This document shows positions 47,961-50,900 of a stretch of DNA of 64,000 nucleotides, one piece after another. The stretch comes from an uncultured Thiomicrospira sp. Its GTDB lineage: Bacteria; Pseudomonadota; Gammaproteobacteria; CAKMZV01. Location: positions 1,711,553-1,775,552 of the forward strand of contig OZ239628.1 of NCBI GenBank assembly GCA_965195345.1, given 5' to 3'. The notes under the pieces are model-generated. The model did no database searches. It worked only from the letters and a program-made list of their open reading frames with translations, and was not told the DNA's origin. Position 1 is the stretch's first letter; every line of letters starts with the position of its first letter. The translations under genes were made by a program, and so were the position numbers.

Positions 47961-50900
47961 ATGAAAAAAGTTAGCGAAGACGCGTCACAGTATAACTTGT
48001 CACCGCCTATTCCGCCAGGCGAAAAAATCTTATCTGCTGATTCATTCTGTGCACTTGTTCCAGAATTTGACCCTAAGAATCCTCAATCCATTACAAGTTG
48101 GCAATGTTTTTCATCTGAAGTAGGCGAAAAAAACTTCAACTTAGGAGCAAGCACTACTATTGCCGATAAAACCGAGATTTGGGCTTCATCTTTGCAGAGG
48201 GTATCTGACCCAACAAATGGCAATGAAGTTGCTTGTGTATTGGGCAAAGATTCAGCTTACGTCATATCATCGAAAGACACAAATAGTCCCCCAACATTCA
48301 CGAAAAAAAAACGAACAGACTCTTCGCAAGGCACTGCTACTTTTTTTTCAAAATTTGTGTTGGATACAAGCGAGCAAGAAAATAGCCAAGTTATACATAC
48401 AGATCGACTCTTATACTGTATGTTCTCCGATGGAACTAACACGATAACAGTGCATGATGTTGATGACCCCTCATTTCACTTCATCATAGAACTGCCTTTT
48501 AAAATTGTCGATTTATGCGCAGTACTTCAGATAGCCAGCGGGAAAAAGAATTATTGGGTTTGGGTTCTCCAATCCCAAGATCGTCCATGTTTTTGTTTTA
48601 TAGAACATAGCCGCATGATTAATGCTGGCAAAACCGGTTCGTCCCTTAAAGGCAGCGACTTAATACTACATGCATACGCTGATGAATATGCAAATTTTTA
48701 TGTTAGGGATGTACTTATTGGTAGTTACTACTTTGACTCTGATAATCCTGGTAGCCAACAAATAATAGTCTTATCAAATAGCAGCCTCGTTGCTCTTGTG
48801 CATATGTTGTCTTTAGACAGTCAAGGAAAGGTGCAAGAAGTAACACCAGTATTTAACCAAACCTTTAAAATCACTTTCTTTGGTCTCCCAACACCTATGC
48901 AACTGGAGAATTATTTTTCAAAGGGCACAAACTTTCGACCAGGAAGCCTCCAACATCTCATTGCCCCAAATGGAAATCATTCGTTTTATGTAAATGCATA
49001 CGGTCAAGTTTACAACAGTGTAACGTACTGCGCAGCAACCACACATATGCTTGTATCTTTCAATCGTAAGAGCAAAACTTTCTCGTCTCCAGGCTATTAT
49101 ACATATGCCGTTCAGTGCAAACCAATTTGGCCATCTAAGAATCCGTCGCCAAGCGTCGAGCCCGTAGTCGGCATTGTCAATCAATTGGCTGTTGCTGAAG
49201 CAACAGTAAATATCTCGGCTCAAGATAGCAAAGGGGTGTACTCTGGATTTCGGTTATTTTATTCACTTGCTGCAATGACAGCTATTTATGATCCGACACC
49301 TGACCTGTCGGTTTATATAACTTGTGCATTTTGTAATTATCCGGAATTCCAAAATATAGCTTTTGGTTCGTCTTTTATTAAACTGGCTGTCAATAGTGCA
49401 GGAGACTATTACTTGCCACAAGGGTCTAACCCCTTTCCAATTTCTGATAAAGGGCGTTGGATAGATAACTATACTCATCTAGGAATGTTGCAGTTAGATG
49501 ACTCATTTTTTAAGAGTAATAATATATTTAATACGCATTCGGCAGGAGTGCCAGGTGCAGTATTTGACTATACTAAAAGATACTCTCAAGGCTGTTTTAT
49601 GAGCTGTGGAGTAGATTTCATGGGTAAAAGTCTCGTACTAGGAAATCCCCATCTATCTCTATATGATAAGTCAATCCAGCCTCTTGGATTTTACCGCTCT
49701 ATGCCGTTTCAATCCGAAGCGCAGAAAATCATGCCTTTGTTGACAATCGCAAATTCAAATACAGTTGTTAAGGGAATATCAAAATCCACGCATTCTACAT
49801 GGCATGCTGGTTACAATGCTAATGTACAGTACCATGGGGTAATAGCAACAGCCTCTGCTCATTTTGGGCAAAGTTGGGGCGGTTCTAAGATGCACATGTC
49901 GAGTGATCAAAAAACAATCTCTTTACACGTAACCTCTGGAGTTGCCGAATCTGACCTAGTACACACATACAATTCTCTATTTTACCTTTGGGATTACCCA
50001 ATATACCAAAAAATAACTTCAGACGCTCCCCTTGGGGAGATTACTGTCCTAATCCCTCATGGCTTTAGCGAGGCAATTTTAGATGCAACAGATCCTCGCT
50101 TAGGGCACGTTCAAGATTACGAAATAGGTCAAATACTCACTTATCTGGATTCTGAGAAACCTGGGTATTTAGAAAAAAACCTGTGGTTCACGAGAGAAAC
50201 TATTACATGCACCAGCGATGCTCAATCTGGAGGAAGTTCTGTAATATACTCAAAGCAAAATTCCACACACTTAGAGGATGGCAAATCCACAATGGATGGA
50301 ATGAATGCAGGTGGCAGCATCGGATTCCATTATGGTCCAGTGTCAGCAACAGTGAGTGCTTTTTACTCAAAAAATAATGTGGAAAATTCTGCAACAAGCA
50401 CTTTAAAATCCGAAGATTTCACAGTGAGCTTTCACTCAGGAGTCATAGAAGAAGAAGGATATGAATATGCTGTAACACCATTAATATATGGTCACAAAGA
50501 CAATAATATGTTAATGATAAACTGCGAAGTACAATTGATAGGACCACTGTGGAAAAACCACTTTCAGACTCCTGAAATTATAATGATGCGTACTTACCCA
50601 GCTGCTAAAGTGTTGCGGTTAAAACATTTTACACGGAGTATTCGCTTCAGTGAAAATGCAGATCAGACAGTTGATATTAGCTTGCACTTATTCTCAAACT
50701 CATATAGTCCTTCTGCAAATATTGTTTGCAATGTCTACGCAGGTATGGCATTTTATATAAGCGAGAATAAACCTCCAGTTACAACCAAATTGAAATTACT
50801 AGGCACAGTGAAAGTTGCCTCACTTGATGGGTTGCAACGATATATTGCGGTATTAAAGAATCAACATTTACAGAAAAACACCCATATTACTGTTGAAGTT

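Follow-up and report, generated by a model that had tools for sequence, protein, structure and literature searches.

Beta-barrel pore-forming proteins belong to only a handful of structural families, and a locus in the genome of an uncultured Thiomicrospira sp. may add to them. The locus lies in a 64,000-nucleotide stretch of DNA (GenBank assembly GCA_965195345.1, contig OZ239628.1, positions 1,711,553 to 1,775,552 of the forward strand; hereafter the window) and encodes a large protein preceded by four small genes. We tentatively interpret the large protein and its four small upstream neighbors as a two-component beta-barrel pore-forming system of a new family, a reading to which we give slightly less than an even chance. 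All functional claims made here rest on sequence conservation and on a structure model that is partly of low confidence.

In the MACPF/CDC/CDCL proteins (such as perforin, perfringolysin O, and Elizabethkingia CDCL with CDCL-S), as in the large protein, there are two amphipathic segments of similar length per protomer, potentially providing four strands, and an accessory binding domain flanks the pore module. CDCLs also occur in two-gene arrangements comprising a long and a short partner (PMC7527733). Unlike these proteins, the large protein shows no detectable sequence, motif, or fold relation to the group, its module appears to be internally duplicated, its segments are predicted as beta structure rather than as helical bundles, and its head is a predicted beta-propeller. 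The partner also differs; the CDCL short partner is a truncated paralogue, whereas the one here appears to be an immunoglobulin (Ig)-like protein with two TIG domains.

The aerolysin/ETX-MTX2 toxins (Cry23Aa1, also known as Mpp23, parasporin-2, epsilon-toxin, and lysenin) share with the large protein very long serine/threonine (S/T)-rich strands flanking an amphipathic insertion hairpin. A lectin-type head is common among them, and Cry23Aa1 is one half of a binary toxin and is made without a signal peptide. In contrast, the large protein has two hairpins per protomer instead of one and is four times larger. The gene arrangement is analogous to that of the aegerolysin/MACPF pairs and other binary beta-pore-forming toxins (pleurotolysin A/B, Cry34/35), in which the gene for a large pore-former has that for a small beta-sandwich protein as its neighbor, with the small subunit attaching to the membrane and drawing in the large one. 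However, there is no homology to these systems, the partner genes here occur as two to five diverged tandem copies, and a corresponding role for them is putative.

The domain organization of the large protein was taken from an AlphaFold2 (AF2) model built from an 80-sequence alignment (mean predicted local distance difference test score [pLDDT] 75.7; predicted template modeling score [pTM] 0.71); a model from the single sequence was uninformative (pLDDT 30). The following features, all on the plus strand, are distinguished:

47961 to 51005, plus strand: open reading frame (ORF) of the large protein, 1014 amino acids (aa), with a predicted beta-propeller, duplicated long-hairpin module, and CARDB-like domain
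48003 to 49700, plus strand: predicted N-terminal beta-propeller region, aa ~15-580; loops 305-324, 397-472, and 489-538 of low confidence
49605 to 49649, plus strand: most conserved propeller-blade motif, D-x-x-G-x-S-x-x-L-G-x-P, aa 549-563
49704 to 50051, plus strand: putative repeat A, aa 582-697, hairpin 1 plus a 'Y-x-x-W-x-Y-P-x-Y' hairpin (strands 666-682 and 692-708)
49737 to 49943, plus strand: long hairpin 1 of the AF2 model, aa 593-661, strands 593-625 and 630-661; pLDDT <50 at 607-654
49800 to 49889, plus strand: amphipathic tip of hairpin 1, aa 614-643, turn 627-628; candidate membrane-spanning hairpin
50193 to 50525, plus strand: putative repeat B, aa 745-855, hairpin 2 plus a 'Y-x-Y-x-V-T-P-x-I-Y' hairpin (strands 836-844 and 851-859)
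50238 to 50435, plus strand: long hairpin 2 of the AF2 model, aa 760-825, strands 760-791 and 794-825; pLDDT <50 at 776-806
50289 to 50372, plus strand: amphipathic tip of hairpin 2, aa 777-804; candidate membrane-spanning hairpin
50628 to 50960, plus strand: predicted C-terminal CARDB-like Ig domain, aa ~890-1000, a beta-sandwich with pLDDT 94-98

The original prediction, made from the sequence of the window, placed S/T/G-rich amphipathic segments between 49700 and 50460 and proposed that they may form a beta-pore-forming module. Both segments are indeed located there: STHSTWHAG...HVTSGV corresponds to aa 609-661 (49785-49943) and GSIGFHYG...SFHSGV to aa 785-828 (50313-50444). The S/T/G/A/N content of the protein, calculated over a 40-residue sliding window, has a mean of 0.36 (sd 0.09), and the two segments are its compositional maxima, because all of the 40 top windows begin at aa 591-609 or 743-783. 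In the AF2 model, two long hairpins of equal length (strands of 32-33 residues) protrude from the protein, with confident bases and low-confidence tips, as would be expected of conformation-switching segments; a beta-hairpin, not a helix-turn-helix, lies between them. The general idea of a pore-forming module is thus strengthened by the modeled hairpins and their amphipathic tips, while its suggested connection to MACPF/CDC toxins, discussed below, found no support.

An exhaustive HMMER search of 1.84 billion representative sequences identified 89 homologous clusters at 50% identity, so that by sequence the family of the large protein appears to be rare. Its members are found in marine gammaproteobacteria, cyanobacteria, and others; most are 900-1000 aa long, and the clusters match the query only over the C-terminal ~460 residues. 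Another homologue search returned a single relative, whether with one sequence or with an 80-sequence profile, a profile scan of genome contigs with the close-clade alignment gave no match, and a metagenome scan gave three short loci only.

Conservation was assessed in 70 realigned homologous C-terminal regions with ~20-30% identity. At the polar positions of the two segments, S/T/G/N make up 61-64% of the residues, whereas the remaining beta-strands of this region reach 34% (Mann-Whitney p = 2e-9); charges are also fewer (0.18 versus 0.285; p = 1e-3). The alternation of hydrophobic and small polar residues is conserved in the family profile and is very clear at both hairpin tips. In the tip of hairpin 1, positions 614, 616, 620, 622, 624, 626, 629, 631, 635, 639, and 643 are hydrophobic in 64-99% of the sequences and the intervening positions are small or polar in 71-99%, except for the D/charge-rich position 619; the turn at 627-628 is G-rich. 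The hydrophobic faces match across this turn (626/629, 624/631, 620/635, and 616/639), with aromatics at W614 and Y639. The tip of hairpin 2 is hydrophobic at the odd positions from 777 to 789 as well as at 794, 796, 798, and 804 (46-100%), and small or polar (S/T/G/N/Q/H) at the alternate positions (71-100%). Length is conserved as well: the P592-D665 span of hairpin 1 is exactly 74 aa in 56 of the 70 homologues, and hairpin 2 varies only at its turn, which has 4-15 residues. Individual positions are also kept, including W614 (77%), G640 (74%), and G795 (83%); family-wide, S predominates at position 634 and E at position 641. Judged by these alignments, the two segments are a conserved structural feature and not compositional noise.

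Two further observations concern the hairpins. The tip of hairpin 2 (aligned to aa 787-794) is 15 residues long in most members, where a hydrophobic 'L-F-D-Y-L-P-x-x-F-G-L-N-L' is conserved, while in the window clade the turn is shortened to eight residues; the longer form resembles a loop that interacts with membranes. The hairpins (aa 609-828; 49785-50444) of the window protein and its close relatives are also unusually His-rich, with H611, H615, H625, H634, H645, H656, H770, H790, and H825, and H656 is invariant across the 10-sequence close clade. These histidines could be a pH trigger.

Alignment of aa 560-710 with aa 740-862 by hhalign (Prob 78%, E 1.8e-5, 107 columns) includes motifs not composed of S/T, and is suggestive of a tandem duplication of one hairpin unit in the central module. 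We grade the duplication no higher because the shared S/T-rich composition of the two halves may inflate the score.

The flanking domains have recognizable relatives. We read the blade motif at aa 549-563, in which D552, G555, G561, and P563 are invariant or nearly so, as FG-GAP-like. The N-terminal domain is modeled as a seven-bladed propeller of the FG-GAP type, and 11-13 of 43 homologues have a match to Pfam FG-GAP or FG-GAP_3, which the window protein lacks. For the C-terminal domain, the family profile matches PDB entry 2kut (E 3.6e-4), and Pfam CARDB is found in two to three homologues (best E 2e-5) with no direct Pfam match for the window protein; the modeled fold is Ig-like, as in CARDB domains. 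At their extreme N-terminus (aa 14-23 in the window protein), the large proteins carry a conserved motif, which reads 'PPIPPGEKI' in the close clade and, in the cyanobacterial-type clade, 'NPLQLGQxLY'.

The second component is encoded directly upstream of the large gene by four tandem genes:

44825 to 45490, plus strand: ORF of partner copy 1, 221 aa, with two TIG-like Ig domains and no signal peptide
45801 to 46469, plus strand: partner copy 2, 222 aa, one residue different from copy 3
46511 to 47179, plus strand: ORF of partner copy 3, 222 aa
47221 to 47886, plus strand: ORF of partner copy 4, 221 aa, 74 nt upstream of the large gene

The four copies are 73-77% identical, and the genes for copies 2 and 3 differ by the single residue and a few bases. 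Homologues of these proteins, detected with a hidden Markov model built from the partner family, flank the large gene in every related locus with enough flanking DNA, in total eight independent loci:

L001 (cyanobacterial): one 185-aa partner
L002: one partner upstream, BLASTP E 2e-12 to copy 4 of the window
L005: one partner
L006: one partner
L007: three partners downstream and two on the opposite strand
L008: a 98-aa ORF adjoining the large gene
L009/L010: two 426-427-aa partners, each a fused double unit
L011: three partners downstream and a 142-aa ORF 4.3 kb downstream

Because partner homologues flank the large gene across these loci, we consider the pair to be a conserved two-gene module of at least one putative two-TIG-domain protein and one large protein. 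Assignment of the window partners to TIG rests on transitive evidence. The copies in the window have no Pfam match; the L001 partner passes the gathering score of Pfam TIG (PF01833) with 32.8 bits over two stretches (the L009 and L005 partners reach 18.9 and 15.1 bits), and the window partner profile aligns to the L001 partner over 164 columns (hhalign E 3e-5, Prob 73%). In L009 (2977-5569), the two tandem partners each consist of two fused ~200-aa units, giving four TIG-like domains. Multi-copy arrays comparable to that in the window are found in L007 (five copies) and L011 (three to four copies). Within the window array (44825-47886), the ribosome-binding regions are conserved and copies 1 and 4 are more alike, a pattern that suggests recent duplication or gene conversion. 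Two near-identical antisense ORFs of 88 and 95 aa (45758-46024 and 46447-46734, minus strand) overlie the starts of copies 2 and 3 and are most likely by-products of the tandem repeat, not genes.

The central module of the large protein is covered by no Pfam, NCBIfam, PADLOC, or PDB family. Among 43 homologues searched at E ≤ 10, Pfam matches were limited to FG-GAP, CARDB, and one tail of the type IX secretion system (T9SS), with the central module unmatched; NCBIfam and PADLOC had no family for it, and a PDB profile search with the central module only returned nothing significant. The architecture is undescribed in the full-text literature searched.

Comparison to individual pore-forming families likewise yielded no significant match. 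Pfam MACPF (PF01823) was not detected in the window protein at E ≤ 1 or in the 43 homologues at E ≤ 10, and Thiol_cytolysin was not detected in the latter at the same threshold. The MACPF signature Y/W-G-T/S-H-F/Y-x6-G-G is found in 0 of the 70 C-terminal regions, as is a relaxed regular expression. The original prediction had noted an H-F-x4-GG element in the protein that misses the canonical signature spacing. This element is not a family feature, occurring in only six of the 70 homologues, all close relatives. The CDC/CDCL motif is defined as F/Y-F/Y-Xn-YGR plus a conserved GG pair (PMC7527733); F/Y-F/Y-Xn-YGR is present in 0/70, and YGR anywhere in only 4/70. No sequence or fold similarity to solved CDC/CDCL structures was found either. 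On the motif and profile tests that were possible, we reject membership in the MACPF/CDC group.

There was also no match to Pfam Aerolysin or ETX_MTX2 in the 43 homologues. Two of the eight PDB sequences at E ≤ 10 against the family profile are toxins of the aerolysin type, Cry23Aa1 (E 0.02, bias 13; E 0.078 against the central-module profile) and parasporin-2 (E 0.16), each matching hairpin 2 only, non-significantly and with composition bias. The pattern of one insertion hairpin flanked by long S/T-rich strands, which characterizes the aerolysin family, occurs here twice in tandem. The resemblance is in functional style, in long S/T-rich strands carrying amphipathic hairpins, with membership unproven. 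Gasdermin likewise had no Pfam or PADLOC match, and neither the operon of the window nor those related loci that were examined contained a protease gene.

The original prediction had also called for structure prediction followed by fold searches for aerolysin, ETX-MTX2, or MACPF-like folds. The model supplied the two long hairpins, whereas Foldseek gave no significant match to any of these folds. Nor did it confidently match a non-toxin fold in which the segments would be buried strands of an ordinary sheet. The only PDB matches plausibly covering the hairpin region were secretin protomers (InvG, MxiD, GspD, RcpA, and pIV), with E about 1e-4, probabilities of 0.41-1.0, and very low template modeling (TM) scores (TMt 0.09-0.14). 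Each secretin protomer supplies four long strands, arranged as a sheet of long hairpins, to a giant beta-barrel of 12-15 protomers (InvG, GspD, pIV, RcpA). However, secretins are resident outer-membrane channels, not soluble toxins, and the large protein lacks a Secretin domain, N-domains, and a signal peptide; we ruled them out based on the absence of both a Pfam Secretin (PF00263) match and a signal peptide. Chaperone-usher pili, which combine many small Ig subunits with one large beta-rich protein, were rejected because neither signal peptides nor an usher-type profile were found.

If the two components do form a pore, the propeller head would bind a target or glycan and the protomers would oligomerize on the target membrane. 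The two hairpins of equal length could then extend side by side, contributing four strands per protomer to a large beta-barrel, in which amphipathic tips of ~8-14 residues would cross the bilayer, with the S/T-rich stems building an extramembrane barrel above it. The two-TIG proteins would be obligate partners, serving as targeting or assembly subunits by analogy to the aegerolysin/MACPF and Cry34/35 systems, and their diverged copies may confer different specificities; alternatively, they may be chaperones or inhibitors. Because neither component has a Sec signal peptide, the toxin would be exported by some other, non-Sec route or stored and released on lysis or ingestion; it might also act on the producer's own membrane. 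Besides the conserved hairpins and the conserved partner, the local secretin matches, the weak toxin-like matches on hairpin 2, and the distant relatives with signal peptides count in favor of a pore-former.

Several observations weigh against a pore-forming system. Ordinary beta-sandwich strands also show alternating patterns, and on the window sequence alone the beta-moment, calculated over whole strands, is not significant (z 0.8 to -0.6). The hairpin tips have pLDDT values of 31-47, so their extended shape is not confidently predicted. No known pore-forming family matches the central module significantly, whether by sequence or by fold, although the fold searches, run with the full-length model, were dominated by the propeller and probed this module poorly. 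Finally, 56 of 59 full-length homologues lack a signal peptide, as do all partner proteins, and there are no secretion genes near the operon in the window, which leaves delivery to a target membrane unexplained.

The strongest alternative, although unlikely, is that the large protein follows an integrin-alpha-like plan and serves, without lytic activity, at the cell surface, in adhesion, or as a scaffold together with the small TIG proteins, its hairpins being ribbon arms or an elongated beta-sandwich for oligomerization or matrix binding. Integrin alpha and bacterial FG-GAP-CARDB surface proteins have, as here, a seven-bladed FG-GAP propeller followed by Ig-like domains, and the best full-length Foldseek matches of the model are integrin alphaIIb ectodomains (E 2.8e-7), although with low TM-scores (0.18-0.24). 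FG-GAP, CARDB, and TIG are all typical of cell-surface and adhesion proteins, and the low-confidence hairpin tips might pack differently than modeled. Three of the 59 homologues, all distant members, do have a signal peptide, directly followed by an N-terminal motif similar to that of the other large proteins, and one of these carries a T9SS sorting domain, which indicates a probable extracellular role in these relatives. However, most members of the family lack a signal peptide, and the duplicated long-hairpin module has no integrin counterpart. The hairpins have polar faces rich in S/T/G/N and poor in charges, in contrast to the faces that the other strands expose, and a protruding 100-angstrom ribbon with a conserved hydrophobic face would not be soluble unless a membrane or an oligomer enclosed it.

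Less probable still is an intracellular suicide pore, inserted in the producer's own inner membrane in the manner of gasdermin during abortive infection, with the propeller or the TIG partners acting as sensor or inhibitor. This would be compatible with the absence of signal peptides from both components, and gasdermin pores also have two hairpins per protomer. The arrays of diverged small partners recall immunity or sensor arrays, and in L007 a transposase and a resolvase neighbor the module, which is surrounded by numerous small unknown genes. In contrast, PADLOC gave no match for the large protein, the partners, or the neighbors tested, and no associated protease, NTPase, or other defense signaling gene was seen. 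The window operon is instead situated among genes of one-carbon (C1)/dimethylsulfoniopropionate (DMSP)-type metabolism (35015-44186 and 51353-56472), and the relatives with signal peptides and a T9SS domain favor an extracellular role.

We consider it improbable that the hairpins have no special function and are low-complexity S/T-rich loops or linkers drawn as hairpins by AlphaFold default. The low pLDDT of both tips and the failure of the single-sequence model would fit such an explanation, but not the strictly conserved length of hairpin 1, the retention of W614, G640, and G795, or an alternation kept across 70 sequences of such low identity, unlike in disordered linkers. A divergent member of the MACPF/CDC superfamily is hardly credible on the motif and profile results above, despite the two ~40-50-residue amphipathic segments ~100 residues apart, which would provide four strands per protomer as do TMH1/TMH2, and a YG..F element in 42 of the 70 sequences.

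The metabolic genes around the operon form a C1/methyl-group cluster that encodes, among others, a DAO-GcvT fusion (dimethylglycine-dehydrogenase-like), three further GcvT-family proteins, an MTHFR-like protein, a creatinase/M24 protein, an AMP-binding CoA ligase, and an acyl-CoA dehydrogenase. On the minus strand, the last three genes may correspond to a dmdA/dmdB/dmdC arrangement for DMSP demethylation. One gene near the operon has its best match, at 77% identity, in a MAG of uncultured Gammaproteobacteria, and the host is a marine gammaproteobacterium. The 640 nt upstream of the first partner gene (44187-44824) contain no convincing gene, only an 87-aa ORF with a TTG start on the minus strand, and could hold a promoter or regulatory elements of the operon; a scan for promoter and terminator consensus sequences was at background level and uninformative for this stretch, and Rfam identified nothing in the window. 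In the metagenomic contig L007 (6351-9430 and 14848-21773), the neighbors of the module are a resolvase, a transposase of the IS3 type, and some ten small ORFs without Pfam match, which suggests that it is able to reside on mobile DNA.

If the pore-former reading is correct, the module would be an independent evolutionary solution to membrane perforation, in which a propeller scaffold bears a duplicated double hairpin and an Ig-like protein is the obligate partner, and, if the mechanism holds, a new structural variant among beta-barrel pore-forming toxins; it could also provide a new nanopore scaffold. The multi-copy, diverging partner genes suggest a built-in means of changing target specificity. 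Since free-living marine bacteria and cyanobacteria are the hosts, and export signals are missing from the proteins, the question arises whether these are stored toxins directed against protist grazers or phage. It is possible, although more doubtful than a pore-forming function as such, that the locus is the founding example of a rare two-component family whose pore module arose from a tandem-duplicated hairpin independently of MACPF/CDC, aerolysin, and gasdermin, and which needs a two-TIG partner, both components being made without a signal peptide. If this is the case, the large protein and its partners would constitute a poison-pill toxin, released on lysis or on ingestion by a grazer, or a self-directed death effector.

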